A DNA stretch of 64,000 nucleotides from an uncultured Rikenella sp. (lineage in GTDB: Bacteria; Bacteroidota; Bacteroidia; Bacteroidales; VadinHA17): contig CAYVYM010000006.1 of the NCBI GenBank assembly GCA_964455705.1, positions 25,805-89,804 of the forward strand, given 5' to 3'. The translations under genes were made by a program, and so were the position numbers. The notes below the pieces were generated by a model. That model had not been told where the DNA came from. It saw only the letters and a program-made list of their open reading frames with translations, and did not search any database. Shown one piece after another: positions 14,994-64,000 of the stretch (positions are counted from its first letter, which is position 1; each line of letters begins with the position of its first letter).

Positions 14994-15013
14994 TCGGACT
15001 GCATGGAGCTGAG

Positions 15014-47125: not shown

Positions 47126-47725
47126 CTAATAGCCCGAGTCATACCATGTTCTTACATCGGTGGCGATCATACCAGCTCTCCTTGCAGCCTCGATCCCCAG
47201 GTCGCCGTCTTCAAACACCTCACAATCAGAGGGTAATACCTTCATCAGTTCAGCGCACTTCAGGAATGTCTCCGGATGCGGTTTGTGTTTCTTTACATCA
47301 TTTGCAGTGACGATGACGTCAAAGTACTGCCTGATCCCTATTATCTCCAGTGTTTTCTCCACGGAGTCGCGGTTGCCTCCCGTGCCGACTGACATAGGCA
47401 GCTTCCCGTAGTATTTCTGCACCAGGGCAGTAACCGGTTCGACGGGGGTCATCTTATGCTGAATGGCGGAAAACTCCTCAAGTTTGACCCCGATGATCTC
47501 TTCAGGGGATACTTTTCCGGTCATGCCGTTTTGTTCAATAATCTCCTCAGCTATCTTCCAGCCAGGTGACCCTGTCCGGGCCTGAAGAAATGCGGTGTCC
47601 ATGGTGAAGCCGAACCTGAGGCATGCCTTCTGCCATGCCTGGTAGTGACACGGCATGTTGTTGGCGAGAGTACCGTCAAGATCAAATATCAGTGCTTTTA
47701 CTCCGGGAGTAATGTCGAAATTCAT
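47126..47725 (-). CDS. HAD-superfamily hydrolase (beta-phosphoglucomutase/phosphatase-like)
   Basis: 199 aa. HAD motif I is LIFDLDGTLANN. The C-terminal block is VFEDGDLGIEAARRAGM. Confidence 0.8.
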   Translation of the reverse strand: MNFDITPGVKALIFDLDGTLANNMPCHYQAWQKACLRFGFTMDTAFLQARTGSPGWKIAEEIIEQNGMTGKVSPEEIIGVKLEEFSAIQHKMTPVEPVTALVQKYYGKLPMSVGTGGNRDSVEKTLEIIGIRQYFDVIVTANDVKKHKPHPETFLKCAELMKVLPSDCEVFEDGDLGIEAARRAGMIATDVRTWYDSGY

Positions 47726-47744
47726 TTAGAACACATTTGAGGGG

Positions 47745-47752
47745 CAAAAGTA
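47745..47752 (-). promoter_or_regulatory. -7 promoter box TACTTTTG (minus strand) for the HAD gene
   Basis: The plus strand reads CAAAAGTA. It is 20 bp upstream of the ATG at 47725. Confidence 0.45.
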
Positions 47753-47768
47753 GCACTAATCAGGCAAA

Positions 47769-47831
47769 AGAGGAATTTTCGATTTCAGATTTTCGATTGT
47801 CGATTTAATCGCAAATCGCAAATCGCAAATC
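47769..47831. repeat. 63-bp heptamer-based imperfect-palindrome repeat, copy B
   Basis: It matches copy A at 63/63 positions in the same orientation. Similarity continues for about 8 bp beyond the end (TTTCAGAC versus CTTGAGAC). Confidence 0.9.
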
Positions 47832-47840
47832 CTTGAGACC

Positions 47841-49874
47841 TTATATGCCAAGGAACTTCCTTACCTCCTTCGCAATGTTCTCGCCTGTGAATCCGAATTT
47901 TTCATCGAGCATGTTGTACGCTGCCGAAAAGCCGAAGCTTTCGAGACCCCATACCTTGCCCTCTGATCCGGCAAATCCCAGCATAGTCACCGGCAGGCCG
48001 GCCGTCAGACAGAATACGGGAATTCCCGGCGTGATGACACTCTGCCTGTATTTCTCATCCTGCAATCTGAATAGCCCCTCCGAAGGTGCAGAGACTATCC
48101 TTGGTTTAATACCTTCTGCCGACAGTATCGCTGCGGCATCTACAAGTGTTGCCACCTCTGAGCCGCTGGCCACCATAATCACATCAGGCGTTCCTTCTGC
48201 ATCAGTGACTATATAGGCGCCCCTGAAGGCCATAGCCGCAGCCTCTATCCTCGACTTGCCCGTAAAAGGCAGTGTCTTGATATTCTGTCGTGACAGGATC
48301 AATGCCGTAGGCGTGGTTTTATTCTCCAGTGCCAGTTTCCAGGCAATATTGGTCTCAATTGCATCAGCAGGCCTTAATACAAGCATGCTGTTTTCACCGT
48401 TATGGTTTTTGAGGTGCTCCATAAGCCTTATCTGTGCCTCCTGTTCTACTGGCTGGTGGGTTGGACCGTCTTCGCCAACGCGGAAGGAGTCATGCGTCCA
48501 TATATACTTGACAGGAAGGCGCATCAGCGCTGCCAGTCTCACGGCCGGCTTCATAAAGTCAGAGAAGACGAAAAAGGTTCCGCACGCAGGAATAACTCCT
48601 CCGTGGAGTGCCATCCCGTTCATCACGCCAGCCATTGTCAGCTCGGATACACCGGCATGGAGGAAGGCGCCGGAAAAGTCTCCCCTGACCAGAGGCTTAC
48701 TCTTCTTGAGGAAACCATCAGTCTTGTCAGAATTGGCAAGGTCAGCCGATGCGACTATCATGTTCGGGATTTTTTCCGCGAAGTAAGAGAGGATCGCAGC
48801 CGAGGCGTTGCGGGTGGCATCATTTTCCTTCTGGGCAATTGCCGTGAAGTCTATTTCGGGGACAACCCCTGCATAGAATTCCTCAAGCTGACGGGCGGCT
48901 TCTGGATTCCCGGCAGCCCAAGCCTTCTTTTTCTTTCTCCAGCTTGTCGCGGTAGCGGTTTTACCTGCCAGCACCATCTCATATAGCTGCTTCACGTCAC
49001 TGAATATCTCAAACGGTCTCTCCGGGTCACCGCCAAGGATGGCGACAGATTTCTTAAAGGATGCTCCGGCATGGGTAACCGGCTGACCGTGTATTGAAGT
49101 CTTTCCTTCGAAGCTGTTGCCCGCTTCGTCAATGAGGCCTTTCCCCATCACCGTTTTACCAATGATTAAAACGGGTTTTTCATTCTCATCTCCTGCCATG
49201 CGCAGTGCTCCTCGGATCTGGTCATGGCTGTGTCCGTCTATCTCCAGTACGCGCCATCCCCAGGCTTTGTATTTGGCAGCTGTGTTTTCAGATGTGACCA
49301 CCGATGTCACTGTGGAGAGCTGTATATCATTGGAATCATAGAAGAGGATCAGGTTACTAAGTCCGAGGTGACCTGCCAGTCGGCCTGCCCCCTGAGAGAT
49401 CTCCTCCTGTATTCCCCCGTCGGAGATGTATGAATAGATCTTATGCTCGAAGAGACGGCCGAAGCGGTCTGCGAGGAAGCGTTCGGCCACGGCAGCTCCG
49501 ACGGCCATCGTATGACCCTGGCCAAGAGGACCGGAGGTGTTCTCGATGGCGTGCTTCAGGTCAAGCTCGGGGTGGCCGGGAGTAACACTGCCCCACTGGC
49601 GGAACTGCATGATATCGTCAACGGTGAAATGTCCGGTGAGTGTCAGCACCGAATAAAGCATAGGTGACATGTGCCCCGGGTCAAGGAAGAAGCGGTCCCT
49701 GTTTATCCAGGCCGGGTCAGCGGGGTCAAAGCGGAGAAACTCCGAGAAGAGGATATGGATGAAATCAGCTCCGCCCATCGCCCCGCCAGGGTGTCCTGAA
49801 TTGGCCTTCTCAACCATCGCCATTGAGAGGATACGGATATTGTCTGCTGCTCGTTCGTTAACGTTCCTGATCAT
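47841..49874 (-). CDS. tkt: Transketolase
   Basis: 677 aa. Transketolase blocks present are ANSGHPGGAMGGADF, GPLGQG and DGGIQEEISQGAGRLAGHLGL. Confidence 0.92.
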   Translation of the reverse strand: MIRNVNERAADNIRILSMAMVEKANSGHPGGAMGGADFIHILFSEFLRFDPADPAWINRDRFFLDPGHMSPMLYSVLTLTGHFTVDDIMQFRQWGSVTPGHPELDLKHAIENTSGPLGQGHTMAVGAAVAERFLADRFGRLFEHKIYSYISDGGIQEEISQGAGRLAGHLGLSNLILFYDSNDIQLSTVTSVVTSENTAAKYKAWGWRVLEIDGHSHDQIRGALRMAGDENEKPVLIIGKTVMGKGLIDEAGNSFEGKTSIHGQPVTHAGASFKKSVAILGGDPERPFEIFSDVKQLYEMVLAGKTATATSWRKKKKAWAAGNPEAARQLEEFYAGVVPEIDFTAIAQKENDATRNASAAILSYFAEKIPNMIVASADLANSDKTDGFLKKSKPLVRGDFSGAFLHAGVSELTMAGVMNGMALHGGVIPACGTFFVFSDFMKPAVRLAALMRLPVKYIWTHDSFRVGEDGPTHQPVEQEAQIRLMEHLKNHNGENSMLVLRPADAIETNIAWKLALENKTTPTALILSRQNIKTLPFTGKSRIEAAAMAFRGAYIVTDAEGTPDVIMVASGSEVATLVDAAAILSAEGIKPRIVSAPSEGLFRLQDEKYRQSVITPGIPVFCLTAGLPVTMLGFAGSEGKVWGLESFGFSAAYNMLDEKFGFTGENIAKEVRKFLGI

Positions 49875-50024: not shown

Positions 50025-51473
50025 TCAGGCGTTATAGGTGGAAGATGCGGTGTCACCACCACGGCCGGTCCAGTTGGTGTGAAAGAATTCACCTTCCGGT
50101 TTGTCGATCCGCTGGTAGGTATGTGCTCCGAAATAGTCGCGCTGAGCCTGCAGGAGATTGGCCGGCAGCCAGGCCGACCGGTAGCTGTCGAACCAGGCCA
50201 GCGCGGCGCTCATGGCAGGCACCGGGATGCCGTCCCTGACAGCCCCTGCTATAACCCGTCTCCAGCTCTCGCTGTTCTCCCTGAGGATGGCTGAGAAATA
50301 GCCGTCCATGATGAGGTTGGGCAGCTTCGGGTCACGGGTGAATGCCTCGTAGATCTTGTTCAGGAAGGCAGACCTGATGATGCACCCTGCCCTCCAGATC
50401 ATAGCTATCTCACCGTAATTGAGGTCCCAGTTATATTCGCCTGCAGCGCTCCTGAGCAGGTTGAATCCCTGTGCATAAGAGACGATCTTTGAGGCGTAGA
50501 GCGCCTTGCGTATGTCGTCAATGAACAGTTTCTTATCAAGGAGAGGACCTTTGGCAGGAGTGCTGAAGAGGGGGGCGGCCTGCACCCGCTCCTTCTTCAT
50601 TGAGGAGATGAACCTTGCGAAGACCGATTCTCCGATGAGGCTCAGCGGCACCCCATGATCGAGGGCGCTGACAACGGTCCATTTGCCTGTTCCCTTCTGG
50701 CCTGCCGAGTCAAGTATCTTTGTGACAATGGACTGGCCGTCAGTATCCTTGTATCTCAGTATCTCTCCAGTGATCTCAATCAGGTATGAATCGAGTTCAA
50801 CCTTGTTCCACTCTTCGAAGATGCCGGCCATCTCATCATAGGAGAATGCCCCGGAACTGACCAGCAGGTGAAAGGCTTCGCATATGAGCTGCATATCACC
50901 GTACTCGATGCCGTTATGGGCCATCTTCACGAAGTGCCCTGCCCCGTTATCGCCTATCCAGGTGACGCATGGGGCTCCGTCATCAGCTCTTGCAGCAATT
51001 GCATGGAAGATATCCTTAAGATGAGGCCAGGCCTCCTTTGATCCGCCCGGCATCAGGGACGGTCCTAAAAGAGCGCCCTCTTCACCACCGGAGACGCCTG
51101 TACCAATGTACAGGAGACCTTTGCTCTCAACATACTGTGTTCTCCTTATTGTATCGGGGAAGTGTGAGTTGCCTCCCTCAATAATTATATCTCCCTTGTC
51201 GAGCAGGGGTATGATCATCTCAATAAAGTCATCAACAGGCTCACCTGCCTTGACCATCAGCATCACCCTGCGTGGCCTGCTGAGGTTCGAGACAAGCTCC
51301 TCAAGTGAGTATGAGGGTATGATCTTTTTTCCTTTCCCGCGCCCGTTGACGAAATTTGTCACTTTGTCGGTGGTACGGTTGAATACTGCCACCGTGAAGC
51401 CCCTGCTTTCAATGTTTAGAACGAGGTTTTCTCCCATCACGGCGAGACCTATCAATCCTATATCTGCTTTCAT
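50025..51473 (-). CDS. gnd: 6-phosphogluconate dehydrogenase, decarboxylating
   Basis: 482 aa. The Rossmann block is IGLIGLAVMGENLVLN. AGHFVKMAHNGIEYGDMQLICE and the C-terminal block RDYFGAHTYQRID are also present. Confidence 0.92.
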   Translation of the reverse strand: MKADIGLIGLAVMGENLVLNIESRGFTVAVFNRTTDKVTNFVNGRGKGKKIIPSYSLEELVSNLSRPRRVMLMVKAGEPVDDFIEMIIPLLDKGDIIIEGGNSHFPDTIRRTQYVESKGLLYIGTGVSGGEEGALLGPSLMPGGSKEAWPHLKDIFHAIAARADDGAPCVTWIGDNGAGHFVKMAHNGIEYGDMQLICEAFHLLVSSGAFSYDEMAGIFEEWNKVELDSYLIEITGEILRYKDTDGQSIVTKILDSAGQKGTGKWTVVSALDHGVPLSLIGESVFARFISSMKKERVQAAPLFSTPAKGPLLDKKLFIDDIRKALYASKIVSYAQGFNLLRSAAGEYNWDLNYGEIAMIWRAGCIIRSAFLNKIYEAFTRDPKLPNLIMDGYFSAILRENSESWRRVIAGAVRDGIPVPAMSAALAWFDSYRSAWLPANLLQAQRDYFGAHTYQRIDKPEGEFFHTNWTGRGGDTASSTYNA

Positions 51474-51495: not shown

Positions 51496-52623
51496 TTAAT
51501 GGATTATTTTAAAACCGAGATCAGAAAGGATCTGACATGCAACCGGATCTGCGGTCTTCACCCCGTAAGATCCAAATTCTCTCCTGATTCTGTAGTTATC
51601 GCGAAGATACTCGAATTTTCCCGGGTCACTTCGAAAGAGGCGGTCATCCTCTTCCAAAGGATAAGTATGTCTGACGGCCGTGGCAATGAGGCCAGCCAGG
51701 TCTCCGGCATCAGTATAACGATTTAAGTCTATCAGTGGTTCGGAAGGCTGCGGCAGTGAGTCCGGTGACCAGTCATACAGGGGAATGCTGAGTGCTGCCG
51801 AGACCTCTCTCACGGAATTTACTGTTGCATTGGCCTTGCCGTCGACGGAGTATCCGGCAATGTGCGGAGTGGCTACATCAACAAGTTCAACAAGTCGCCT
51901 GTCGGTTTCGGGCTCTCCTTCCCAGACATCAAGGACAGCACCGCGCAACATTCTCTTTTCAAGTGACACCCTCAGTGCGATGTTATCAACCACCTCACCG
52001 CGTGAGGTGTTTATGAGGATACTGTTCCTCTTAAGCCGTGCCAGGCTGGCGCTGTTGATGAGATGCCGGGTCATGTCCTCTCCCTCAAGCGTCAGCGGGA
52101 CATGCAATGTAAGTATATCAGACTCTGCGAGCAGTTTTTCAAGAGGAAGGAATTCTTTCCCACCTTCGCGCCTCTGTCTCGGAGGGTCATTCTGCAATAC
52201 CTTCATACCTATGGCTTCCGCTGCCCTGACAACCTTTGATCCGACGTTGCCCACTCCCACAACTCCCAGTGTGAGGGAAGGGAGATCAAGCGAGTGTTTC
52301 GAGGCTAGAAGGAAAAGAGCTGCGGTGATGTAATGCATTACCGAGCCCGAGTTGCAGCCCGGGGCATTCACCCATCTTATGCCTGCCTGTTCAAGCCAGG
52401 CTGTGTCAAAGTGGTCAAACCCGATGGTGGCCGAAGCCACTATTTTGACTTTGCTGCCGGCGAGCAGGTGGTGGTCGCACCTGGTGCGGGTCCGTACAAT
52501 AAGTGCATCGGCATCGGCAACCATCTGAGCATCTATTGCCCGGCCGGGACTGTAGATAACATCAGCCCAGGGCTCAAAGACCCCTTTAATATATGGTATA
52601 TGCTCGTCGATTACGATTTTCAT
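51496..52623 (-). CDS. pdxB: 4-phosphoerythronate dehydrogenase
   Basis: 375 aa. It is collinear with E. coli PdxB from MKIVIDEHIPY through GVVGVGNVG and HIAGYS to the C-terminal dimerisation-domain block LRDNYRIRREF...LGFKIIH. Confidence 0.85.
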   Translation of the reverse strand: MKIVIDEHIPYIKGVFEPWADVIYSPGRAIDAQMVADADALIVRTRTRCDHHLLAGSKVKIVASATIGFDHFDTAWLEQAGIRWVNAPGCNSGSVMHYITAALFLLASKHSLDLPSLTLGVVGVGNVGSKVVRAAEAIGMKVLQNDPPRQRREGGKEFLPLEKLLAESDILTLHVPLTLEGEDMTRHLINSASLARLKRNSILINTSRGEVVDNIALRVSLEKRMLRGAVLDVWEGEPETDRRLVELVDVATPHIAGYSVDGKANATVNSVREVSAALSIPLYDWSPDSLPQPSEPLIDLNRYTDAGDLAGLIATAVRHTYPLEEDDRLFRSDPGKFEYLRDNYRIRREFGSYGVKTADPVACQILSDLGFKIIH

Positions 52624-52627
52624 CGAT

Positions 52628-53908
52628 TCACCGGGATGCTTTCCAGAGTCCCGTGGCCGGGTTGGAGATAAAATAATACTCTTCGCCGTCGGGAGTGGAG
52701 TGGAATCCTGTCATCCTGCCCAGAGGGTCGTATCTTTTAATTAACGCTTTGATGTCACCGAAGTTGTAGCCGGCGGCCTCCACCTCCTTACGGGTAAGAT
52801 GGCCGGCTGCGTATGTCACGCTGAACCTGTTCTCATGAGAGCCGTGGATGAGATGAGCTGCAGCGCTCAGATTATCCTTCAGGTCGTCATTTTCCTCAAC
52901 GAACTTCATTATCTCCGGTGTGGTCCTGTAGCCGTATTTTCTTATCAGGGAGTCAATGGAGGGGTCCTCACCGAATGCCCTCACTCCCTGGGCCAACACC
53001 ACAAGTTCGCCACCGTCGGCGATGGCCATACGGGTGCGGTAGATGCTCTTGTTGCCAAGCCATGTGCTCTTGAATTCACCGGGGTCAAGCCACACAACCA
53101 CCTTCTTCAGTCTTTCAGGCAGGGTGGTAAAATTAACTTGTCCCGACAGTGAGGCTGCCTGCCTGAAGCACTCAACATCATCGCCTGCAAAGAACCCCCT
53201 GAGTTTCAGTTCACCCTTGTGGTCCGGTGAGACAACCGTCAGTAAGTAGAGCAGCGGAAGTCTGCCTTTTGTTATCTCCGAGGCCTTGTTCAGGACAGCC
53301 CTGACGGGATTGTCAACTGTTCCGAGGATATTTTCAATGCCGTGAACGGCACCCATGAAATGACTTTTGTTTATTGCCTCGCTTCCGCCGCACCCGACGA
53401 AGATATTTTTATTGTAATTAGCCATTCCCGTCACCTCGTGCGGCACAACCTGTCCGACTGAGATTATCAGGTCATGCCCGCCCGATGAGAGCAGCCGGTT
53501 GACCTGCACCGGGTAGTCAAAGTCAAGCTTCCCGCCGGTCACCTCTGAAACAAACGCAGACGGAACCCTGCCGAGCTCTTCGATATCGGTTCTCCAATTG
53601 TGGTCTCTGAAGAGTGAAAGCGGTACTGTGCCGAACATTTTTGATATCTCGCCGCTCTCCATTGGTATATGTGTTCCAAGGGCAGGGAGTATATCTTTTA
53701 CCTTTTTGTCGAAGTGCTCCCATAACAATTCAGTGATCATACCCGCCCCGGAGTGGGCGCGGGTAATATCTGGTGGAATTATCAGAATCCTCCTCCGCTG
53801 AGAAAAGATTCCCAGTGCATTCTTCAGAGCCTCACGCAAGTCTTCCCTTGTCAACTCTCTATCTGGTCCTGCTGCTGCGTAATATATCATATTCCTCTGT
53901 TTTGCCAT
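52628..53908 (-). CDS. LarA-like (lactate racemase domain, DUF2088) putative NPN-dependent 2-hydroxyacid racemase/epimerase
   Basis: 426 aa. In VVPHEVTGMANYNKNIFVGCGGSEAINKSH the spacing is His-(10)-Lys-(16)-His. This equals the His174/Lys184/His200 spacing of Lactobacillus plantarum LarA as I recall it. The start may be 53890, which would avoid the 22-nt overlap with the upstream gene. Confidence 0.7.
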   Translation of the reverse strand: MAKQRNMIYYAAAGPDRELTREDLREALKNALGIFSQRRRILIIPPDITRAHSGAGMITELLWEHFDKKVKDILPALGTHIPMESGEISKMFGTVPLSLFRDHNWRTDIEELGRVPSAFVSEVTGGKLDFDYPVQVNRLLSSGGHDLIISVGQVVPHEVTGMANYNKNIFVGCGGSEAINKSHFMGAVHGIENILGTVDNPVRAVLNKASEITKGRLPLLYLLTVVSPDHKGELKLRGFFAGDDVECFRQAASLSGQVNFTTLPERLKKVVVWLDPGEFKSTWLGNKSIYRTRMAIADGGELVVLAQGVRAFGEDPSIDSLIRKYGYRTTPEIMKFVEENDDLKDNLSAAAHLIHGSHENRFSVTYAAGHLTRKEVEAAGYNFGDIKALIKRYDPLGRMTGFHSTPDGEEYYFISNPATGLWKASR

Positions 53909-54771
53909 GAAGGTTTTTCAGGCAGCGACTCCATGAACTCCTTCAGGAGTCTCTCCTGGTAGTCACCCTTGTATGTTCCTGCGATAAATCTGTCAAGACC
54001 TTCGTCGAAAAATAGCTTCCACGACCTGTTTTCATGGCCGGGGACCACCGGGAAGAAGAGGGCGTTGTTGCCGAGGGCTGCCTTGTAGTCGCCAGGTGCA
54101 TCGCCTATCATTAGTATCTTGTCATCTGCGTATTTACCCCTGGCTGCCAGGGTTATATGTTCGGTCTTGGTGCCATGCTCCTGTCCGGCGATAGCCTTGA
54201 CATACCGGTCGATGGCGTGTTCTTCCCACTCCCTTACCAGGGCTTCATGGGGTGTCTGTGACACAACAATGGCGTCGGCCAGAGTGCACAGTCTCTCAAT
54301 CGATTTACGGGCGAATGGGAAAGGAGGAGTATTACGGAGCCATTTTGCTATGTCTTCATTCACGGCCAGGGTCCAGTTAAGTACAGGCTTCAGGGCAGGG
54401 TGGGGGTTACTCAGGAAATACTCCCTGAAGACCGGGTTCCCGAGCCTGGTCTCCCTGGTAGTCCATTCCCGGAGGGGTTCCATGTCAGGAAGTTTAAACC
54501 CCAGCTCAATAATCTCCGGCCTCTCAGCCAGAAGATCCATCACCCTGATCAGTGCCGGGAAACGGTTTGTGCCTCTCGTTACTGAGTAGAGGTTGACGAA
54601 ATCCCAGGTCTCGCGCACATACCTGGAGATGGCAAAGAGACCGAAATATTTGACGGTGTTCGGGCAGAAGAACTCCTTGTGTTTGACCTCCATGGTATCG
54701 AAGACGCATCCGTCAGAGTCGATCCCTATGAAGAACTCCTTCTCCGGCTTCAGTTGTTCAAGTATGTTCAT
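53887..54771 (-). CDS. HAD-superfamily hydrolase (putative sugar or acid-sugar phosphatase)
   Basis: 294 aa. HAD motif I is FIGIDSDGCVFDT. The distal block is MIGDAPGDYKAA. Confidence 0.7.
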   Translation of the reverse strand: MNILEQLKPEKEFFIGIDSDGCVFDTMEVKHKEFFCPNTVKYFGLFAISRYVRETWDFVNLYSVTRGTNRFPALIRVMDLLAERPEIIELGFKLPDMEPLREWTTRETRLGNPVFREYFLSNPHPALKPVLNWTLAVNEDIAKWLRNTPPFPFARKSIERLCTLADAIVVSQTPHEALVREWEEHAIDRYVKAIAGQEHGTKTEHITLAARGKYADDKILMIGDAPGDYKAALGNNALFFPVVPGHENRSWKLFFDEGLDRFIAGTYKGDYQERLLKEFMESLPEKPSWQNRGI

Positions 54772-54833
54772 ACTGCCAGGGCTCTAAGGTTCATATATGT
54801 ATATATTACAATTGCCTGTCAATTTTGTTTCGT

Positions 54834-55688
54834 TTAAACACCGCTGTATGCGCTGAAGCCTCCGTCTACAGGTATCACCACTCCCGTCACAAACGATGAG
54901 GCCTCTGACACCAGGTAGAGCATGGTACCAACGAGCTCTTCAGGCTCAGCATATCTGCCCATCGGTGTAGCGGATATTATCTTTTTACCGCGCGGGGTCA
55001 TATCTCCGGTCTGTTCATCGGTGAGCAGGAAGCGATTCTGGTTGGTAAGAAGGAAACCCGGGGCGATTGCGTTGACCCTGACGCCTGATGGTGCAAAGTG
55101 CACTGCCAGCCACTGCGTGAAGTTATTGACGGCAGCCTTTGCGGCCGAATAGGCCGGTATCTTCGTGAGCGGCCTGTAGGCGTTCATGGATGATATATTC
55201 AATATGGATCCGCTCCCTCTCCTGACCATATCTTCGCTGAGTATCATTGAAGGAAGGACAGTCCCTTTGAAGTTCAGGTCAAATACACCGTCAAATCCCT
55301 CGATGTCGAGATCAAAAAAGGTCCCTTTCAGGTCTTTGTCATCACCGCTGATGTACTCTCTTGCTGTTGTGGCGGAGGCTTTATTGCCGCCTGCACAGTT
55401 TACCAGTATGTCGAGGGTCCCGAAGGCGGATCGTATCTCTTCACGTGCTTTCAGGAGCGACTCCCTGTCGGTCACGCTGGCGCCGATGGCAGCAGCCACG
55501 CTGCAGTCGGGCCTCGCGACCATCTCTGCAGCGGTGATGGCACCCCTGGCCGGGTTCACATCCAGAATGATGACTGTCACTCCGGCCTGGCACAGTCCTT
55601 TTACAAGGGTTTGCCCTATCACTCCGCTGCCGCCGGTGATGGCGGCTACTTTTCCTTTCAGATCGCTGAAATCATTCATAAGTTCCAA
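54834..55688 (-). CDS. SDR-family oxidoreductase (UxuB/YjmF-type fructuronate reductase-like)
   Basis: 284 aa. The Rossmann block is KGKVAAITGGSGVIG. The catalytic YxxxK is PAYSAAKAAV. It lies within a hexuronate gene cluster. Confidence 0.7.
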   Translation of the reverse strand: MELMNDFSDLKGKVAAITGGSGVIGQTLVKGLCQAGVTVIILDVNPARGAITAAEMVARPDCSVAAAIGASVTDRESLLKAREEIRSAFGTLDILVNCAGGNKASATTAREYISGDDKDLKGTFFDLDIEGFDGVFDLNFKGTVLPSMILSEDMVRRGSGSILNISSMNAYRPLTKIPAYSAAKAAVNNFTQWLAVHFAPSGVRVNAIAPGFLLTNQNRFLLTDEQTGDMTPRGKKIISATPMGRYAEPEELVGTMLYLVSEASSFVTGVVIPVDGGFSAYSGV

Positions 55689-55693
55689 TGTTT

Positions 55694-57223
55694 CTAATCA
55701 ACTATAATGGGTTTATATTTTGGCACAAGCATTTTCATCACTATCCAACCTATCAGGTAAGCCACCGCGCAGATGCAGAATATGATGAAATAGCCAGCCC
55801 TTATTCCCTCGAATCCGAAGAATTTCATCGGTTCAGTGGCATATTGGGCGCCGGTCGCAAGAAGCTCCTTTGTCATCACACTCACCTTGCCAGCTGCCAT
55901 AGTGGTTCCTGATGCAAAGTCAAACAGAACGCCGGATCCTTTATTAATGAGGAATGCTCCGAAGCCTCCGGCCATGCCTCCGATGCCCGTGATGGTTGCT
56001 ACGGCTGATTTCGGGAACATGTCACCGATGGTAGAGAAAAGGTTGGCAGACCAGGCCTGGTGGGCGGCAGCTGCAATACCAATGATGACAACCGGGAACC
56101 AGTAGGAGAGATGCCCCAGTGGTTGTGCGAGCAGGGCCAGCAGGGGGAAGAAGGCAAAGATCAGCATGGCGCGCATCCGACCTGAGTAGGGATTCATCCC
56201 CAGTTTATCTACGAAATACCTTGGAAGCCAGCCCCCGATGATAGAGAGCATGACGATGGCATAAAGGACAAATATCAGTAGCTTGGCCATGTTGGTATCG
56301 GAAGTAAGTCCGTAGACATCACTGAGGTAGGCAGGAGTCCAGAAGAGGTAGAACCACCAGACGCCGTCAGTCATGAATTTGCCGAAGGCAAATGCCCAGG
56401 TCTGTTTGTATCTGAAACATTGCCTGAATGACATCTTCTTCTCTATCTTTTCTATATTGTTGTTTGCCTTTGTCTCTGCAATGGTGTCCTGGTTGATGTA
56501 GTCAAGTTCAGCCTTATTTACCCGCGGGTGAGCATGAGGTTTCTTATACATGAAAATCCAGAATCCCATCCAGATGAAGCCAATTGCACCGATGGCAACA
56601 AATGCCATTTCCCATCCCCATTTTGCAGCAATAACGGGTATGGATATCGGGGCGATGAGGGCACCTATCTGAGCCCCGGAATTGAAGATACTGGTTGAGA
56701 ATGCCCGGTCCTTTTTCGGGAAGAACTCGGCAGTGGTCTTTATTGCTGCCGGGAAGTTGCCCGCCTCACCGAGGGCCAGTACGAAGCGCGCGAAGATGAA
56801 TAATGTCACACTGACAGAGGTCACCAATCCGATATCATCTACCGTGCCAATTATTTGGCGGGCCTCTTCAAAGCCTACGAACCACTTTCCGGCCGTGATC
56901 CCGGAGGTGGCTATACCGCAGAATGCGTGAAGCACGGCACCTGCCGACCAGATGCCGATGGCCCAGAGGAATCCTTTTTTGGTGTCTATCCAGTCGACAA
57001 ACCGGCCGGCAACAAGCAAGGAGACGGCGTAGAAGATTGAGAAGAGACCGGTGATTGTGCCGTAGTCATTGTTGGTCCAGTGAAATTCTGGTGCAATAAA
57101 GTCCTTCCATGTCAGGGACAGAACCTGACGGTCCATGTAGTTGATGGCTACGGAAAAAAACAACAGGCCGGTGATGGCCCACCTGTAGTTTGTCATTTTG
57201 GCATCAGTGGTTTGTGCAGGCAT
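55694..57223 (-). CDS. MFS transporter (ExuT/ACS-family hexuronate transporter-like)
   Basis: 509 aa with multiple TM segments. The N-terminal block is YRWAITGLLFFSVAINYMDRQVLS. It is adjacent to uxaC, uxaE and eda. Confidence 0.75.
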   Translation of the reverse strand: MPAQTTDAKMTNYRWAITGLLFFSVAINYMDRQVLSLTWKDFIAPEFHWTNNDYGTITGLFSIFYAVSLLVAGRFVDWIDTKKGFLWAIGIWSAGAVLHAFCGIATSGITAGKWFVGFEEARQIIGTVDDIGLVTSVSVTLFIFARFVLALGEAGNFPAAIKTTAEFFPKKDRAFSTSIFNSGAQIGALIAPISIPVIAAKWGWEMAFVAIGAIGFIWMGFWIFMYKKPHAHPRVNKAELDYINQDTIAETKANNNIEKIEKKMSFRQCFRYKQTWAFAFGKFMTDGVWWFYLFWTPAYLSDVYGLTSDTNMAKLLIFVLYAIVMLSIIGGWLPRYFVDKLGMNPYSGRMRAMLIFAFFPLLALLAQPLGHLSYWFPVVIIGIAAAAHQAWSANLFSTIGDMFPKSAVATITGIGGMAGGFGAFLINKGSGVLFDFASGTTMAAGKVSVMTKELLATGAQYATEPMKFFGFEGIRAGYFIIFCICAVAYLIGWIVMKMLVPKYKPIIVD

Positions 57224-57276: not shown

Positions 57277-57957
57277 TCAGGCGGTTGCAGTCCTGATTTT
57301 CCTGATCATGGCAAGCGTCTCTTTCACTTTGACGGTTATGGCATTCCAGTCTCCGGCCTTCACAATTTTATCGGTGATTAGAGCTGACCCCATCCCGACA
57401 CATGTCACACCTGCGGTAAACCATTTTTCCAGGTTTTCCTCCGAAGGGTCAACACCGCCGGTAGGCATTATGCTTGTCCACGGACATGGTCCTTTGACCG
57501 CTTTGACGAAAGAGGGTCCGCCGACGGCGTTTCCCGGAAAGATCTTCACTATCTCGGTACCAAGCTCCTCGGCCTGTGAAATCTCGGTGAGCGTGCCGCA
57601 TCCCGGTATCCACATGACCTTCCTCCGGTTGCAGATTCTCGCCACTTCAGGATTAAGCACCGGGGAGACGATGAAGTCGGCGCCCATCTGCATGTAGATT
57701 CCTGCCGTGGGTGCATCAGCGACAGAGCCTGCCCCTATCATCATCCCCGGGCAGTTTTCCACGGCCCACCTCTTCACCGAGGCAAAAACCTCATGCGCGA
57801 AGTCGCCCCTGTTGGTAAACTCGAATACCTTTGCACCACCGTTATAGCAAGCAGAGATAACCTTTTTGCATATCTCATCGTCGTGATGATAAAAGAGCGG
57901 CACCAGGCCTGTCTCCTCCATTGTAAGTGCTACCTGAATTCGTGTAAAACCGGACAT
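57277..57957 (-). CDS. eda: KDPG/KHG aldolase
   Basis: Start taken at the internal ATG 57957 (MSGFTRIQV...), about 226 aa. Blocks present are GADFIVSP and the Schiff-base Lys context EIVKIFPG. Confidence 0.8.
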   Translation of the reverse strand: MSGFTRIQVALTMEETGLVPLFYHHDDEICKKVISACYNGGAKVFEFTNRGDFAHEVFASVKRWAVENCPGMMIGAGSVADAPTAGIYMQMGADFIVSPVLNPEVARICNRRKVMWIPGCGTLTEISQAEELGTEIVKIFPGNAVGGPSFVKAVKGPCPWTSIMPTGGVDPSEENLEKWFTAGVTCVGMGSALITDKIVKAGDWNAITVKVKETLAMIRKIRTATA

Positions 57958-57976
57958 ATTTCCTCTCTTAAATGGT

Positions 57977-59383
57977 TCAGAAACCGAAATAGTTTTTTGC
58001 GTTGTAGTATGAGATGTTCTCAACCATCTTTGCTATGGTGACTGTCTCTGATACCGGAAGCTTACCCTTTTCAATATCCTCACCGAGCATATTGCAGAGA
58101 ATTCTCCTGAAGTATTCATGACGAGGATATGAGATAAAGCTTCTCGAATCAGTGAGCATCCCGACGAATCTGCTCAGCAGTCCCATCAGAGAGAGGGCGT
58201 TAAGCTGGTTGGTCATACCTGTCTCCTGGTCAAGGAACCACCATCCGGCACCAAACTGGATCTTCCCGGGCACACTACCGTCCTGGAAGTTACCGATCAT
58301 TGAGGCAATCAGTTCGTTATCTCCCGGGTTGAGGTTATAGAGGATGGTCTTTGTCAGCCTGCCTTTGGAGTCGAGCCTGTCAAGGAACGTGGCTAAATCC
58401 TTTGCCACCGTGAAGTCGCCCATTGAGTCATAGCCTGTGTCAGGTCCGAGTCTGGCCAGCATACGGCTGTTGTTATTGCGGATGGCACCGTAGTGGAACT
58501 GTTGTGTCCAGCCCCGCTCAGCATCCATCACCGCCAGTTCGTGAAGCATGGCCGATTTAAATTTTGACACCTCCTCGCGGCTGAGAGGGGTTCCCGCAGT
58601 GACTTTTATGAAAATGATGTCTGCCTCTCTTACGGTGCAGTCATCTGCATAAAACTGTTCTATTCCATGGTCACTGAGAACGCAGCCGGCTTCGGCAAAA
58701 TACTGATGTCTTTTTCTCAGGGCTTCATGCAGGGAGTCAAAATTTTTAATCTCAGTGTCTGATACTTCCTCAAGTGTTTTGACATAGTCTCTGAATTTTG
58801 CCGGATCTTCCACAGCCATGGCCCTGTCGGGCCTCCAGGCAGGGAGGACTTTTACTTCAAAACCACTGTTTTTCAGTTTTTTATGATGCTCCAGGTTATC
58901 TACGGGGTCATCGGTAGTGCAGATCACCTCGACGTTGAACTTTTTTATCAGTCCGCGTGCCGAGTATTCGGGTTTCCGGAGCATGGCAGTGCACTCTTCC
59001 CATATCTCCGCCGCGGTTGAAGAGTTGAGTATCCGGTTGATTCCGAATACCCTTTTCAGTTCGAGGTGTGTCCATGCATAGAGAGGGTTGCGCATAGTAA
59101 AGGGAACCGTCCCGGCCCAGCGGTCATACTTCTCGCGGAAGGAGGTCTCGTTCCCTGTGATGTATCTCTCATCTACACCGTTTGTTCTCATGGCCCTCCA
59201 CTTGTAATGATCGCCTTCGAGCCATAACTGGCCGAGGTCGTCAAAACGCCTGTCGACGTCAATTGCCTCAGGACTGATATGACAGTGATAGTCTATTATC
59301 GGCATGCCTTCTGAATGCTCATGATAGAGTTTTCTGGCAAAATCATTCTGCAGCAGGAAGTCTTCGTGGATAAATTCTTTCAT
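57977..59383 (-). CDS. uxaC: Glucuronate/galacturonate isomerase
   Basis: Start taken at ATG 59383, giving MKEFIHEDFLLQNDFARKLYHEHSEGMPIIDYHCHISP, the UxaC signature N-terminus. This removes the apparent overlap with uxaE. Confidence 0.9.
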   Translation of the reverse strand: MKEFIHEDFLLQNDFARKLYHEHSEGMPIIDYHCHISPEAIDVDRRFDDLGQLWLEGDHYKWRAMRTNGVDERYITGNETSFREKYDRWAGTVPFTMRNPLYAWTHLELKRVFGINRILNSSTAAEIWEECTAMLRKPEYSARGLIKKFNVEVICTTDDPVDNLEHHKKLKNSGFEVKVLPAWRPDRAMAVEDPAKFRDYVKTLEEVSDTEIKNFDSLHEALRKRHQYFAEAGCVLSDHGIEQFYADDCTVREADIIFIKVTAGTPLSREEVSKFKSAMLHELAVMDAERGWTQQFHYGAIRNNNSRMLARLGPDTGYDSMGDFTVAKDLATFLDRLDSKGRLTKTILYNLNPGDNELIASMIGNFQDGSVPGKIQFGAGWWFLDQETGMTNQLNALSLMGLLSRFVGMLTDSRSFISYPRHEYFRRILCNMLGEDIEKGKLPVSETVTIAKMVENISYYNAKNYFGF

Positions 59384-59400
59384 AGGATGAGAGATATATG

Positions 59401-60657
59401 TTACTGACGTGTAAAGAGGCGCACTATGTGTCTGCGGTAGATATTCTCCCACACGCATGATTCTATAATGGCAGAGTAGGCATCAATGGCATCAGTATAA
59501 TCCTTACCCATTTCGGCGGCCACTTTATAGCCCACATGAATAAGCTGGCGGAAGCTGGGGTTATAGTCAGGGTGTCCAGGGACATGCCTCAGAGTTTCGG
59601 CGTATTTCTTTGTGTCCCAGGTGTCAACAACCTCCGGAGCAGGAAGCAGTTCCGGTTTGATATCAATTACGGTGGCATACGGACCGCAGAGTTCATCACG
59701 TCTTTCGTATGCACTACGGTATATCCGCTTAGCTATATCGAGTCCTGCGCCACCGGCCAGGGCAAGGCCTATCACCTCCTCGAGCCATGTTGTTCCGGCC
59801 GTTTTGACGTGGAGCCCGCAATCGTGCTTCTTTATTATCTGCCCCATGATGGGGTAGATCGAAAACTTGTCGCTTCCCGAATGCACACTCAGCTTGAGAT
59901 CTGAAGGCAGACCGAACATCTTTACCGCATACCTGATGACGAGGATATCCTCTTCAAACTCCTTCCCGAAGTGGGCCGGATCACCCTCATAGTCAACGCC
60001 TTTGTTAAACCGACCTGTGAATTTCGGGGCTATGGTCTGTACAGGGACCTTCAGATCGGCGAGCGCCTTCAGGATGAAGAGCATCTCCAGTGGCTGCTGC
60101 GGCTGGTCAACCTCATCCATTGAGACCTCGGTGACAAAGTTGCCTTCGCCCTTAACCGATGCTATATGCCTGTAGATTGCGGCGGCCTCATTGATGGCAA
60201 AGAGAAATTTTTCAGCGAAGGCCCTGAGGTAACCCTCAGTGATGGTGAAGTGGCCATTGATGCCGGGGATACTCAGGTCACCGTATAATGAACTGTGTGC
60301 CTCCACAAATCTTTCGATATCTGTGTTGGATGCGCTCTTACCTATAAAATCAGCCACATCAAGGGTGAAGAAGTCGGAGTGGTCAATGAACCGACCGACG
60401 GTTGTCAGGTTAATGTGGTCAGCATCAACGAAGTACGGACCATCGTAACCAAGGTCGCGGACAGCAGCATCAGCCTCAGCGCGGGTGTCAGCGGGTTCCG
60501 AGTGAACTATATTATGTTCCCTGTTTGATTTGTTCCAGACGGGAGTGATATCAATGCCCAGTTCGGAAGAAGCCTTAATCAGGGCTTTTAACTGGGCTTT
60601 GCCCTGGTGTGAGAACCTGTCCCCGATCCCAAACGAATACTTGCCTGTCTCTTTCAT
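59401..60657 (-). CDS. uxaE: Tagaturonate/fructuronate epimerase (UxaE family)
   Basis: 418 aa. The blocks SFGIGDRFSHQG, FVDADHIN, LKLSVHSGSDKFSIYP, LHVKTAGTTWLEEV and FRQLIHVGY match the Thermotoga UxaE blocks I recall (SFGTGDRLG, GADADHV, ISLHSGSDKFSVYP, FHVKTAGTSYLEAV, VRQLIHVTY). Confidence 0.8.
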   Translation of the reverse strand: MKETGKYSFGIGDRFSHQGKAQLKALIKASSELGIDITPVWNKSNREHNIVHSEPADTRAEADAAVRDLGYDGPYFVDADHINLTTVGRFIDHSDFFTLDVADFIGKSASNTDIERFVEAHSSLYGDLSIPGINGHFTITEGYLRAFAEKFLFAINEAAAIYRHIASVKGEGNFVTEVSMDEVDQPQQPLEMLFILKALADLKVPVQTIAPKFTGRFNKGVDYEGDPAHFGKEFEEDILVIRYAVKMFGLPSDLKLSVHSGSDKFSIYPIMGQIIKKHDCGLHVKTAGTTWLEEVIGLALAGGAGLDIAKRIYRSAYERRDELCGPYATVIDIKPELLPAPEVVDTWDTKKYAETLRHVPGHPDYNPSFRQLIHVGYKVAAEMGKDYTDAIDAYSAIIESCVWENIYRRHIVRLFTRQ

Positions 60658-61060: not shown

Positions 61061-62455
61061 TCAGAGAGCTATCTTTTCTCCGTTGATGTACACCTTTTTC
61101 AGTCTCACCCGCTCAGCTCCGGTGATTGATGTTCCCTCCTGAACACCGTTGAAGCTGCAGTCTATGAGGTTGATGTCAGAGACATTGACCGATTCATCAA
61201 GGCCTATGATAAAGATACCGTACTTGCTTTCCTGAGAGGTCACATTATCAAGTGTCACGTTCCTGACAAAGGGGGGAAACCCTCTCTTGCACTCCTCGCG
61301 GGGTTCATACATAAGGTTGATCTTAAGAACAGCTTCTGAACACTTTCCCACCTTTACATTCCTGACATTCACATTATCAATGATGCCGCCACGACAGTCG
61401 GATGTCTTGATCCTGATGACCCTCAGCAGTTCGGGACTGTCCATCTCACAATCCTCGACAAAGAGGTTGTAAAACCCTCCCGAGATCTCGCTGCCGATTA
61501 CAACTCCGCCGTGACCGTCTGCCATGCGGCAGTTGCGAACAATTATATTCTGTGACGGTATCGCCCATCTCCTGCCGTCATTGTTTCGTCCGGATTTAAT
61601 GGCGATGCAGTCGTCACCCGTGTCGAAGTAGCAGTTCTCAATCAGGACGCCGTTGCATGATTCGGGGTCACAGCCGTCAGAGTTGGGACCGGCGCTGATG
61701 ATCGTTACCCCCCTGAGGATGAAGTTATCAGTCCTGACCGGGTGGATCACCCAGAAGGGGGAGTTCTTAAGTGTCAGGTCTTCTATCAGGACGGTGTTGC
61801 AGTTGTTGAAGTTCACCAGTTGTGGCCTGAGAGCCCCCTCGAGTCCGAAGCGGCGTTCTTCAACGGGCGTCTGGTTCTGTTCGTGGCCCAGCAACTGAAG
61901 TCTGCCGGATATCTTCTGGTTATTCATCCCCTCGCGCCAGCCGTAATCAGGATTGCCGTTCATCCACCACCACGCCTCGTTGGAGGCCTGACCGTCAATG
62001 GTTCCCTTGCCTGTGAGGGCAATGTTGGAGGCATCGATTGCATAGATCAACGGGTGAATATTATAGCAGTCCATACCTTCCCAGCGTGTCAGTACAGGAG
62101 GGAGGTAAATATCATAGTCAGTTGAAAAGAGCAGTGTCGCCTTTTCTGAGATATGCAGGTTTACATTGCTCAGCAGTATCACCGGGCCTGTGGTCCAGAT
62201 GCCTGAAGGCACGTAGACCACTCCTCCTCCGCTGCCGTGACACTTCCGTATGGCTGCCTCAATGGCTTCTGTGTTAAGGAACGAAGTGTCATCAGCCACT
62301 GCCCCGAAATCGATAATATTGAAAGTGTCGGCAGGGAATGATACCGTGAGTATCGATTGTTCGATCTCCGCGGCCATCTTCCACTTGTCACTGCCCGTGC
62401 AGGAAGGCAGGGCAGCGACAAGGAAGATTAACAGATTAGGCAAAAAGCGGATCAT
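61061..62455 (-). CDS. GH28 polygalacturonase-family lipoprotein
   Basis: 464 aa. Lipobox ...VAALPSC. GH28 blocks are LKNSPFWVIHP, GPNSDGCDPESC, TGDDCIAIKSG and GHGGVVIGSE. Confidence 0.88.
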   Translation of the reverse strand: MIRFLPNLLIFLVAALPSCTGSDKWKMAAEIEQSILTVSFPADTFNIIDFGAVADDTSFLNTEAIEAAIRKCHGSGGGVVYVPSGIWTTGPVILLSNVNLHISEKATLLFSTDYDIYLPPVLTRWEGMDCYNIHPLIYAIDASNIALTGKGTIDGQASNEAWWWMNGNPDYGWREGMNNQKISGRLQLLGHEQNQTPVEERRFGLEGALRPQLVNFNNCNTVLIEDLTLKNSPFWVIHPVRTDNFILRGVTIISAGPNSDGCDPESCNGVLIENCYFDTGDDCIAIKSGRNNDGRRWAIPSQNIIVRNCRMADGHGGVVIGSEISGGFYNLFVEDCEMDSPELLRVIRIKTSDCRGGIIDNVNVRNVKVGKCSEAVLKINLMYEPREECKRGFPPFVRNVTLDNVTSQESKYGIFIIGLDESVNVSDINLIDCSFNGVQEGTSITGAERVRLKKVYINGEKIAL

Positions 62456-62457
62456 AT

Positions 62458-64000
62458 CTAGTAACCCGGGTTTTGCCAGAAGCCTTCAGGATCGGGACCT
62501 GAGGTCTTATTTGTAATGGCGTCCATCTGCGGCTGTGGTATGGGCCTCAGTGTGTGGAACGTCTGGATATTTGGGGCAGCAGCGCCGTTGTACAGTGTGA
62601 CTCTTTCAACAAGGGTGCCGGTACGCTTGAGGTCGAACCAGCGCTGCTGTTCACCGCACAGCTCGCGTGCCCTCTCGTCAAGTATCACACTGATATCCTT
62701 AGCAGATACCTGTGCCAGTTCGGAAGTGGTCAGCGTATTATCTTGACCGGGAATGGCGCGTACTGTCCGCAGGTCATTCAGTTTTTGTGTTGCGGGGCCC
62801 GACTGACCGGCCATCATATAACCTTCTGCGGCGATAAGGTACATCTCTGAGAGCCTGAAGATAAAGGCATCCTTTGAACCAAGGTCTCTGATTACGGTTC
62901 CGGTATAGTCATCGAACTTCTTAAGGGCTATGAACATACGGTTACCCCTATAGTTCTGCACACCGCTGGTTGAGGTGGCAATCGTAGGCATTGTTGCTGC
63001 TTCGGTCTCATAGAGCGGCCACACCACTGGGTCTCCCACGTCGGTGCGTGAGAAAAGGACATACCTGTTGGCTGCCCTGGCTACCTGTGCGGCCGTTACA
63101 GTCTCAGGTGAGAGGTAGAGTCCGGTGTCACGCATGAGTGCATAACCTGCAGGAGGCTCCACCCCGCCTTCAAAGGCTGCAGTAAACTGAGGAGCAATGT
63201 AGTAGACATCACGGAACGAGGCCTGGTAGCGCTGGTCAGTCTCACGGTTGAACACATCAAGAAGGTAACCTGAAGGTACATACCTCGTAAATCCTTTTGA
63301 ATAAGGCTGATAGCTCAGTCCAACATTATAGACCTCACCCCTGAAGGTAATATTCTTATTGGCTTCAGTATCTGTCCGCCGGAGGATAGCTGAGGTAGCC
63401 GGGACACTGTTCCAGACGCCTGTAAACATCAGGTGGGCCGGGCTGCCACCGATAGCGTTGGCTGCATTTCTGAGTATCATCCCTGACCATGTCATCTGGT
63501 TGTTGTTGGCATCAAGTTTGAGCCTTGGAGGCATGATATTGAATGCCAGCTCGGTTGAGTAGTCTACGTGCCAGATGACCTCCCTGTTATTTACCCCGTC
63601 TTCGTTTGCTCCCAGCCAGCAGTCGGCATAGCTGGTGAAGAATGATGCGCCGCTGCCTGTGATCACCTCCTCAGCCTGAGCTGCTGCGGCTGTGTAAGCA
63701 GCAGCATCATTGAACTTGCTGGCTTTATAGATCAGCAGTCGTGCCCGCAATGCTTTTGCAGCCCACAGATTGATGCGGCCTGTCCTGGCTGTACGGGCCT
63801 GCAGGTGCACGATGGATTCATCGACATCATTAAGCATGAATGTATAGACATCCTGTTCCGAAGAGCGGTATGCCAGGCTTGATATGCTGCTCACCGGTTC
63901 ACTGTTTATCTGAACGGGGCCCCATGTCTCAACCAGGTGCCAGTAATAGAAAGCCCTGAGGGCCTTCAGTTCTCCGAGGAACTGATCCCTTTCAAGAGCT
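62458..64000 (-). CDS. susD: SusD/RagB-family protein; the 5' end lies beyond the window
   Basis: The track start at 63894 is an internal GTG. The frame stays open to position 64000 and reads ALERDQFLGELKALRAFYYWHLVETWGPVQINSEP..., a typical SusD block. The C-terminus is ...RWFDLKRTG...GFWQNPGY. Confidence 0.85.
   Translation of the reverse strand, partial: ALERDQFLGELKALRAFYYWHLVETWGPVQINSEPVSSISSLAYRSSEQDVYTFMLNDVDESIVHLQARTARTGRINLWAAKALRARLLIYKASKFNDAAAYTAAAAQAEEVITGSGASFFTSYADCWLGANEDGVNNREVIWHVDYSTELAFNIMPPRLKLDANNNQMTWSGMILRNAANAIGGSPAHLMFTGVWNSVPATSAILRRTDTEANKNITFRGEVYNVGLSYQPYSKGFTRYVPSGYLLDVFNRETDQRYQASFRDVYYIAPQFTAAFEGGVEPPAGYALMRDTGLYLSPETVTAAQVARAANRYVLFSRTDVGDPVVWPLYETEAATMPTIATSTSGVQNYRGNRMFIALKKFDDYTGTVIRDLGSKDAFIFRLSEMYLIAAEGYMMAGQSGPATQKLNDLRTVRAIPGQDNTLTTSELAQVSAKDISVILDERARELCGEQQRWFDLKRTGTLVERVTLYNGAAAPNIQTFHTLRPIPQPQMDAITNKTSGPDPEGFWQNPGY

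Follow-up and report, generated by a model that had tools for sequence, protein, structure and literature searches.

Why would an enzyme of the lactate racemase (LarA) superfamily be encoded between hexuronate genes and the 6-phosphogluconate dehydrogenase gene, gnd, of an uncultured Rikenella sp. (Bacteroidales)? We addressed this question in a stretch of 64,000 nucleotides from contig CAYVYM010000006.1 (assembly GCA_964455705.1), hereafter the window, in which the gene lies at 52628–53908. A first-pass annotation had proposed that its product epimerizes a hexonate at C2, as from D-mannonate to D-gluconate, and thereby links uronates to 6-phosphogluconate (6PG) and the pentose-phosphate pathway. 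Our analysis supports this proposal through a match to the NCBIfam family NF052594, a complete group signature, and a recurrent linkage to Gnd and to a mannonate-forming reductase. By its sequence, the protein is a member of group 18 of the LarA homologs (LarAH18), a curated and already described branch of the superfamily. With moderate confidence, we consider it a 2-hydroxy-acid epimerase of the GntE type that depends on nickel-pincer nucleotide (NPN) as its cofactor and converts D-mannonate to D-gluconate, feeding 6PG through a kinase and Gnd. The evidence thus supports the mannonate–gluconate reading, which is not new: the same idea, leading on to the pentose-phosphate pathway, is a published hypothesis (Rodionova 2012; Desguin 2020, PMC7583248), and the protein is a further member of a published, curated prediction.

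The LarA homolog belongs to a curated group of putative hexonate epimerases

The Pfam domain Lar_N matched the LarAH18 protein at E 1.1e-13, and NF052594, named "nickel-dependent putative hexonate epimerase", aligned with it end to end at 606.4 bits against a cut-off of 500 (E 2e-182), while the next-best NCBIfam family scored 71 bits. The nearest solved structure by sequence was PDB 4NAR, the T. maritima D-gluconate 2-epimerase (E 2e-36, residues 18–355). 4NAR also came first in a Foldseek search, with a TM score of 0.70 from a moderately confident AlphaFold2 model (pLDDT 73, active-site loops below 50), and all 19 significant PDB matches were of the LarA family. Since Lar_N, NF052594, and 4NAR all match, the His/Lys/His triad on which the first-pass annotation was built is not a chance pattern.

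NF052594 corresponds to group 18 of the LarA homologs classified by Desguin et al., who gave a 20-position signature for the group, D R H H E V K H V W L N K S A A L I H S (Desguin 2020, PMC7583248). The LarAH18 protein carries 20 of these 20 residues, and the marks of GntE enzymes are present as E-V after the catalytic His, W283, and an AAH motif. In groups 18, 19, and 20 alike, the catalytic His is followed by a Glu-Val/Ser loop, and helix 11 carries a Trp. Conversion of D-mannonate to D-gluconate has been seen in vitro for groups 19 (GntE1) and 20 (GntE2), and a hexonate substrate was hypothesized for group 18 (PMC7583248). Interconversion of D-mannonate and D-gluconate has been shown for GntE1, GntE2, LarAH15, and LarAH10.

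An exact-sequence look-up returned no record identical to the LarAH18 protein, and among species-representative genomes its best match was 77% identical. Many homologs 72–94% identical are named "nickel-dependent lactate racemase" by JGI and "DUF2088" or "lactate racemase domain-containing" by NCBI. For the group-18 clade (homologs P0242–P0359) the public functional name is misleading, and the mis-annotation is systematic.

Catalytic and cofactor residues are intact and conserved

The gene and its key codons are as follows.

52628–53908, minus strand: LarAH group-18 protein, a putative NPN-dependent hexonate 2-epimerase of the GntE type (NF052594, 4NAR, signature, and fold)
53360–53440, minus strand: codons of His157 (catalytic), Glu158-Val159 (GntE-type specificity loop), Lys167 (NPN tether), and His183 (Ni ligand), with roles by homology to LarA H174, K184, and H200

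The open reading frame (ORF) is intact and full length; read from Met1, it encodes 426 aa. Translation probably begins at Met7 (53890), which would give 420 aa, because most homologs have this length; with this start, the TGA of the preceding HAD-like gene overlaps the LarAH18 ATG as ATGA. The codons of His157 (53438–53440), Lys167 (53408–53410), and His183 (53360–53362) were verified at the positions first claimed for them. Their spacing of 10 and 16 residues likewise equals that of L. plantarum LarA, in which His174 is catalytic, Lys184 tethers NPN, and His200 is the Ni ligand (Desguin 2020, PMC7583248). The first-pass annotation had left out the second catalytic histidine, His80 (LarA His108), as well as Asp47 (D72), Arg50 (R75), and Lys287 (K298), all of which are present. 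In homolog alignments, H80, H157, D47, and K287 were invariant together with the NPN-binding residues R50, K167, and H183, and the catalytic and NPN residues remained unchanged in relatives 53–95% identical from several phyla.

The putative epimerase gene lies in a probable nine-gene hexuronate operon

Profile and domain matches bore out the neighborhood that had been described, with a major facilitator superfamily (MFS) transporter, a short-chain dehydrogenase/reductase (SDR), UxaC, UxaE, and Eda upstream and Gnd and Tkt downstream, all on the minus strand. The features are listed in the order of transcription.

61061–63999, minus strand: GH28 polygalacturonase-type hydrolase and SusD-like protein, the end of a pectin polysaccharide utilization locus (PUL) upstream of the operon
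59401–60657, minus strand: tagaturonate-fructuronate epimerase UxaE (PF16257, 175 bits)
57977–59458, minus strand: glucuronate/galacturonate isomerase UxaC, likely start Met26 at 59383 (PF02614, 679 bits; NF002794, 648 bits)
57277–58023, minus strand: KDPG/KHG aldolase Eda (NF005499, 360.8 bits against a cut-off of 275)
55694–57223, minus strand: MFS transporter of the anion:cation symporter type, hexuronate/hexonate-like (MFS_1, E 3e-47; best NCBIfam match a D-galactonate transporter subfamily, below cut-off)
54834–55688, minus strand: SDR of the UxuB type, fructuronate/D-mannonate oxidoreductase (NF006132, 374.7 bits against a cut-off of 281)
53887–54771, minus strand: divergent HAD-superfamily protein, 294 aa, with a large C1-type cap (motifs, AlphaFold2, and Foldseek)
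51496–52623, minus strand: PdxB-type 4-phosphoerythronate dehydrogenase (NF001309, 432.5 bits against a cut-off of 434; DUF3410 C-terminal domain present)
50025–51473, minus strand: 6-phosphogluconate dehydrogenase (decarboxylating) Gnd, last gene of the tight run (TIGR00873, 737 bits)
47126–49874, minus strand: transketolase Tkt and a YqaB-like HAD phosphatase, downstream, after gaps of 150 (Gnd-Tkt) and 115 nt

The genes for UxaE, UxaC, Eda, the MFS transporter, the UxuB-type SDR, the HAD-like protein, LarAH18, PdxB, and Gnd form a tight run of nine, with intergenic gaps from UxaE to Gnd of 17, 19, 53, 5, 62, -4, 4, and 22 nt; the PdxB-type gene begins 4 nt past the LarAH18 stop. A terminator scan found no intergenic terminator-like site on the minus strand between UxaE and Gnd, and a sigma-70 promoter scan is uninformative for Bacteroidota. 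Because the gaps are tight and no intergenic terminator-like site precedes Gnd, the stretch from UxaE to Gnd is most simply a single operon.

A total of 41 ORFs were called in the window, and 40 were scanned against the profiles, the other being a 115-aa ORF at 1634–1981. None of the 40 matched UxuA, KdgK, gluconate kinase, Zwf, LarB, LarC, or LarE. UxuA and KdgK had been placed outside the window in the first reading, which this result bears out, and the absence of larB, larC, and larE from the 64 kb was also as described, with tblastn searches using Bacteroidota LarB, LarC, and LarE equally empty.

Linkage to a reductase and to Gnd recurs across phyla

Species-representative genomes were scanned with the group-18 alignment, which yielded 80 loci whose ORFs were called and clustered. 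These loci came from Bacteroidota, Ignavibacteriota, Planctomycetota, Acidobacteriota, Spirochaetota, Verrucomicrobiota, and other phyla. Neighbors were counted on the same strand and within four positions in the 70 species-level loci in which LarAH18 itself was called. Gnd was the commonest of them (52/70), followed by the UxuB-type SDR (46/70), a PfkB-family kinase (26/70), a PdxB-like protein (22/70), and a LacI regulator (21/70). UxaC or UxaE stood nearby in about 17–23 of the 70 loci and Gfo/Idh/MocA oxidoreductases in 13, while the HAD-like protein was found in five and a protein resembling pyrophosphate (PPi)-dependent phosphofructokinase (PPi-PFK) in two. The most frequent module order was SDR, PfkB kinase, LarAH18, Gnd. 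Among close relatives of the window locus, with HAD-like proteins 76–91% identical, gene order was unchanged.

The PfkB cluster split cleanly into a clade of about 345 aa beside Eda and UxaC, which is KdgK proper, and clades of about 360 aa beside LarAH18 and Gnd. The longer proteins (L008–L083; e.g., L047:179–1258 and L048:8881–9990) have T. maritima KdgK (2AFB, E 7e-33) as their nearest PDB relative, and we regard them as candidate hexonate (mannonate or gluconate) 6-kinases. Since this clade is specifically found beside LarAH18 and Gnd, the conserved core consists of a reductase, a kinase, the epimerase, and a 6PG dehydrogenase. This result agrees with and sharpens the published group-18 context table, in which an SDR appeared in 36%, Gnd in 32%, and a ribokinase-family kinase in 16% (Desguin 2020).

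The first-pass annotation had described the epimerase route as a bypass of UxuA and KdgK. The route to the pentose-phosphate pathway stood, but it looks like a branch: the operon itself includes Eda, and one locus (L031) has the LarAH18 module together with UxuA (573 bits), KdgK, and Eda. Because of this coexistence, we place the epimerase route beside the classical route and not in its stead.

Two further gene types accompany the module. A PdxB-type gene, whose function belongs to PLP synthesis, is conserved between LarAH18 and Gnd in Bacteroidota, Ignavibacteriota, and one gammaproteobacterial metagenome-assembled genome. We considered whether it is a module-specific paralog (e.g., a 2-keto-6-phosphogluconate reductase) and found this unsupported: the one further member of the family in L036 is SerA-like, which leaves the module copy as the sole PdxB-type gene there, and that copy seems to be a genuine PdxB. 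In several lineages, a PPi-PFK (365–374 bits) lies just upstream of the HAD-like gene and a class II fructose-bisphosphate aldolase (588 bits) follows Gnd.

L022:7534–8844 and 14373–15452; L031:14028–15107; L004:8702–9988: PPi-PFK and class II fructose-bisphosphate aldolase flanking genes

These flanks suggest a wider central-carbon gene cluster. The case for the PPi-PFK-like gene as the module kinase is weak, as it is a member of the standard PPi-PFK subfamily with the class II aldolase nearby and may merely reflect clustering of central metabolism.

Genes for NPN synthesis accompany the module in three phyla

In Saccharicrinis sp. FJH62 (L048), the genes for LacI, SDR, PfkB, LarAH18, and Gnd are followed by convergent cofactor and nickel genes. 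The latter run, at L048:12819–18599, in the order TonB-dependent receptor, NikR, a 244-aa membrane protein, LarB (301 bits), LarC (219 and 151 bits), and LarE (288 bits), and have the look of a complete unit for nickel uptake and NPN synthesis next to the enzyme that it would serve. The 244-aa multi-pass membrane protein had no NCBIfam match and is possibly a Ni permease. A Spirochaetota locus has larB, larE, and larC 4–7 kb from the module, and in a Planctomycetota locus larE lies at a distance of 8 kb (L063, L085), so that lar genes occur near the module in 3 of the 80 loci, from three phyla. LarC is common in Marinilabiliales and Prolixibacteraceae; the best 120 matches to the Saccharicrinis LarC were mostly from Marinilabiliales, at 66% identity or more. 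This linkage speaks in favor of group 18 being NPN-dependent and of Bacteroidota having the pathway; for the source genome it is no direct evidence.

The translationally coupled neighbor is a divergent HAD-fold protein

The 294-aa product of the gene preceding LarAH18 had no Pfam match at default thresholds, with HAD_2 reaching 15.4 bits against a gathering threshold of 23.8, whereas a 62% identical homolog (P0106) passed HAD_2 at 33.1 bits. All four HAD motifs (D18xD20, S171/T173, K202, and D224/D228) were invariant, and the protein has more than 7,800 homologs. Foldseek with the AlphaFold2 model (pLDDT 94.8) retrieved HAD-IA phosphatases and beta-phosphoglucomutases at 12–16% identity and TM scores of 0.45–0.6, values that stay this low because the cap is unusually large. 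The top 50 PDB fold matches were essentially all HAD-fold, natural or engineered, while sequence and profile searches of the PDB returned no relative. On the strength of the homolog number, the invariant motifs, the confident model, and the HAD-fold neighbors, we assign the protein as a HAD-fold enzyme. The earlier label, HAD phosphatase, therefore held for the fold; the phosphatase part is a prediction. Our best guess for its role, drawn from the Arg/Lys-rich conserved cap, is a phospho-sugar-acid phosphatase or phosphotransferase.

The HAD-like and LarAH18 genes share the 4-nt stop/start overlap in L004 and L005 too, two loci that are 61% identical, and a neighbor-joining tree of LarAH18 places their association in no fewer than six separate lineages. 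The HAD-like gene always lies in or near the slot held elsewhere by the PfkB kinase and never beside that kinase; the sister clade of the window (L008, L009) has the PfkB kinase instead. Across the 70 loci, the two genes (5 and 26 loci, respectively) had 0 overlaps (hypergeometric p ~0.09), so mutual exclusion is only suggestive. The HAD-like family was also found without LarAH, beside hydrogenase genes, in three other contigs, so its link to the epimerase is not an obligatory one.

A proposed route from hexuronates to ribulose-5-phosphate

In the pathway that we favor, hexuronate would enter through the MFS transporter and be isomerized by UxaC, with UxaE turning galacturonate-derived tagaturonate into fructuronate. 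The UxuB-type SDR would reduce fructuronate to D-mannonate, and LarAH18 would then invert C2 to give D-gluconate by handing a hydride transiently to NPN, with His80 and His157 alternating as acid and base and the cofactor presumably held by Lys167, His183, and Arg50. A kinase encoded outside the window would phosphorylate gluconate after the epimerization step, and Gnd would convert 6PG to ribulose-5-phosphate. The whole would form a redox-balanced branch beside the UxuA/KdgK/Eda route. The HAD-fold protein may serve as an accessory phosphoryl-transfer enzyme, most likely on a phospho-sugar acid.

Several points weigh against this proposal. No assay of a bacterial group-18 member exists, and "putative" is still part of the NCBI name. 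The 64-kb window includes neither larBCE nor a hexonate kinase, and Eda stands in the operon without UxuA or KdgK, which the epimerase scheme alone leaves unexplained. The Km values of assayed GntE enzymes for free mannonate are high (9–120 mM), leaving room for another true substrate, and extracts of L. suebicus epimerized only the 6-phospho form (Valk 2020, PMC6978723).

These last observations bear on a route in which the order of the two steps is reversed: LarAH18 would act on 6-phospho-D-mannonate to give 6PG, after phosphorylation of mannonate by an enzyme like the LarAH-associated PfkB kinase of other lineages. Extracts of L. suebicus phosphorylated mannonate and interconverted 6-phosphomannonate and 6PG, but when ATP was left out they yielded no gluconate from mannonate (Valk 2020, PMC6978723). 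In the library searched, we found no other paper that mentions 6-phosphomannonate and none that links NPN enzymes with phosphogluconate, and the 2024 survey of LarA homologs included no phospho-substrates (PMC11770544). The commonest gene order, with the kinase between SDR and LarAH18, fits phosphorylation first, as does the high Km of GntEs for free mannonate, and none of the loci showed a canonical gluconate kinase. However, orders in which the kinase comes behind LarAH or behind Gnd occur too, and T. maritima pairs GntE2 with a gluconate kinase. Free mannonate is, moreover, turned over by LarAH15 of Phytophthora nicotianae, a narrow-spectrum GntE that converts D-mannonate to D-gluconate with a Km of 9.4 mM and a kcat of 111 per s (PMC11770544). 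The LarAH15 cloning primer encodes M-A-TLLFAEG, and the P. infestans group-18 protein PITG_09435 has "MTLLFAEG" at the start of its LarA-like part; because these N-termini match, LarAH15 is very probably a group-18 ortholog, so that group 18 would already have been assayed. We regard the phosphorylated substrate as possible but unlikely. More speculatively, LarAH18 might be the missing 6-phosphomannonate 2-epimerase gene and the first known NPN enzyme for a phosphorylated substrate, with the PfkB protein of about 360 aa as the mannonate kinase and, in the lineage of the window, the HAD-fold protein in its slot supplying or editing the phospho-ester by non-kinase phosphoryl transfer; we give this extended version little credence.

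A different uronate-derived acid is an improbable substrate. Candidates would be D-fructuronate/5-keto-D-gluconate, which has the same C2 centre, another hexonate, or an aldarate, with the mannonate activity being promiscuous. Group 18 is called only a "hexonate" epimerase, a non-mannonate native substrate was suspected for group 19 on account of its 120 mM Km (Desguin 2020), and the Gfo/Idh/MocA oxidoreductases noted above adjoin the gene in 13 of 70 loci. Against this, the signature hardly differs from the one that proven GntEs carry, and the linkage to Gnd (52/70) and to the mannonate-forming SDR (46/70) points to a product that becomes 6PG.

It is very improbable that the protein is a cofactor-less or decaying relic, inactive or moonlighting in a genome that lacks NPN biosynthesis. 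The window holds no larBCE, and published group-18 contexts are without lar genes in cis, as this explanation would have it. However, the catalytic and NPN residues are invariant across phyla at 53–95% identity, which implies purifying selection, the ORF is full length and translationally coupled in a tight operon, and elsewhere lar genes do lie near the module (3/80 loci, three phyla), with LarC common in Bacteroidota. Finally, the lactate racemase activity that JGI assigns to homologs 72–94% identical can be dismissed, since the LarA equivalog model NF033504 scored 36.6 bits against a cut-off of 460, the LarA specificity positions Phe175/Phe176 and Trp358 are Glu158, Val159, and small residues here, and the context holds no lactate genes.

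If LarAH18 is the mannonate 2-epimerase that we propose, pectin and hexuronate use in this Bacteroidales lineage would be partly nickel- and NPN-dependent. The lineage would then have a redox-neutral route to ribulose-5-phosphate besides the classical 2-keto-3-deoxygluconate route, which would affect fermentation balances and metabolic models. The module of SDR, PfkB kinase, LarAH18, and Gnd also provides concrete candidate genes for two orphan activities reported in 2020.

Other features of the window

Downstream of the operon, Tkt is followed by the YqaB-like protein, which scored 181 bits against a cut-off of 215 with a fructose-1-phosphate/6-phosphogluconate phosphatase model (window 47126–49874). 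The same pairing recurs at L003:11637–14277, on an unrelated contig with a 294-aa HAD-like gene nearby.

Positions 1–41510 hold a large locus that looks dedicated to the utilization of peptidoglycan and N-acetylmuramic acid (MurNAc). It encodes a GH18 protein, a MurQ-like SIS protein, a BadF-type ATPase, a 1008-aa amidase/fn3 protein, SpoIID, a GH9+CE4 fusion, NamZ, NlpC/P60, an enolase-superfamily (Ala-Glu epimerase-like) protein, a GH3+beta-lactamase fusion, and two SusC/SusD pairs. Within it, at 15014–17944, lies a 976-aa fusion of an FAD-linked oxidase and a 4Fe-4S dicluster domain (D-lactate/glycolate-oxidase type), which could oxidize D-lactate freed from MurNAc. A 778-aa ORF of the same locus (17971–20307) matched no Pfam family at E values up to 0.001. 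G+C drops to 0.40 at 32–36 kb of the window, and no Rfam RNA family was found in the 64 kb.

Comparison with known systems

L. plantarum LarA (5HUQ) has the same fold as the LarAH18 protein, with the two catalytic His residues, the Lys tether, the His Ni ligand, and the Arg, Asp, and Lys positions in common. It differs in sequence (about 15% Foldseek identity), and the window protein lacks the lactate racemase specificity residues. GntE2/TM0442 of T. maritima (4NAR, group 20) has the same catalytic and NPN residues, a Glu after the catalytic His, the Trp of helix 11, and a UxuB-type SDR as a neighbor. At about 24% Foldseek identity, however, its loop reads E-S where the window protein has E-V, helix 11 carries T-G-K instead of L-N-K, and helix 14 carries V-I-N instead of L-I-H; its partner kinase is the FGGY-family GntK and not a PfkB or HAD protein.

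LarAH15, whose proposed orthology draws on the N-terminus only, differs in being eukaryotic and in having no operon context. The mannonate kinase/6-phosphomannonate 2-epimerase route of L. suebicus follows the same logic as the window operon, in which UxaC, UxaE, and UxuB are followed by C2 inversion and phosphorylation and then by Gnd, and it was described as a redox-neutral path from galacturonate to ribulose-5-phosphate (Valk 2020, PMC6978723). There, phosphorylation precedes epimerization, and the activities are without assigned genes.

The closest counterpart is published group 18 ("G2E3", NF052594). The window protein scores above the family cut-off, carries the 20 of 20 signature, and is 53–55% identical to the published members from Acidobacteria; the context of SDR, Gnd, MFS transporter, and UxaC is common to both, with no family-defining difference. 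Unlike the published examples, the module described here lies in a Bacteroidales operon linked to a pectin PUL, with a HAD-fold gene replacing the PfkB kinase and PdxB inserted before Gnd.

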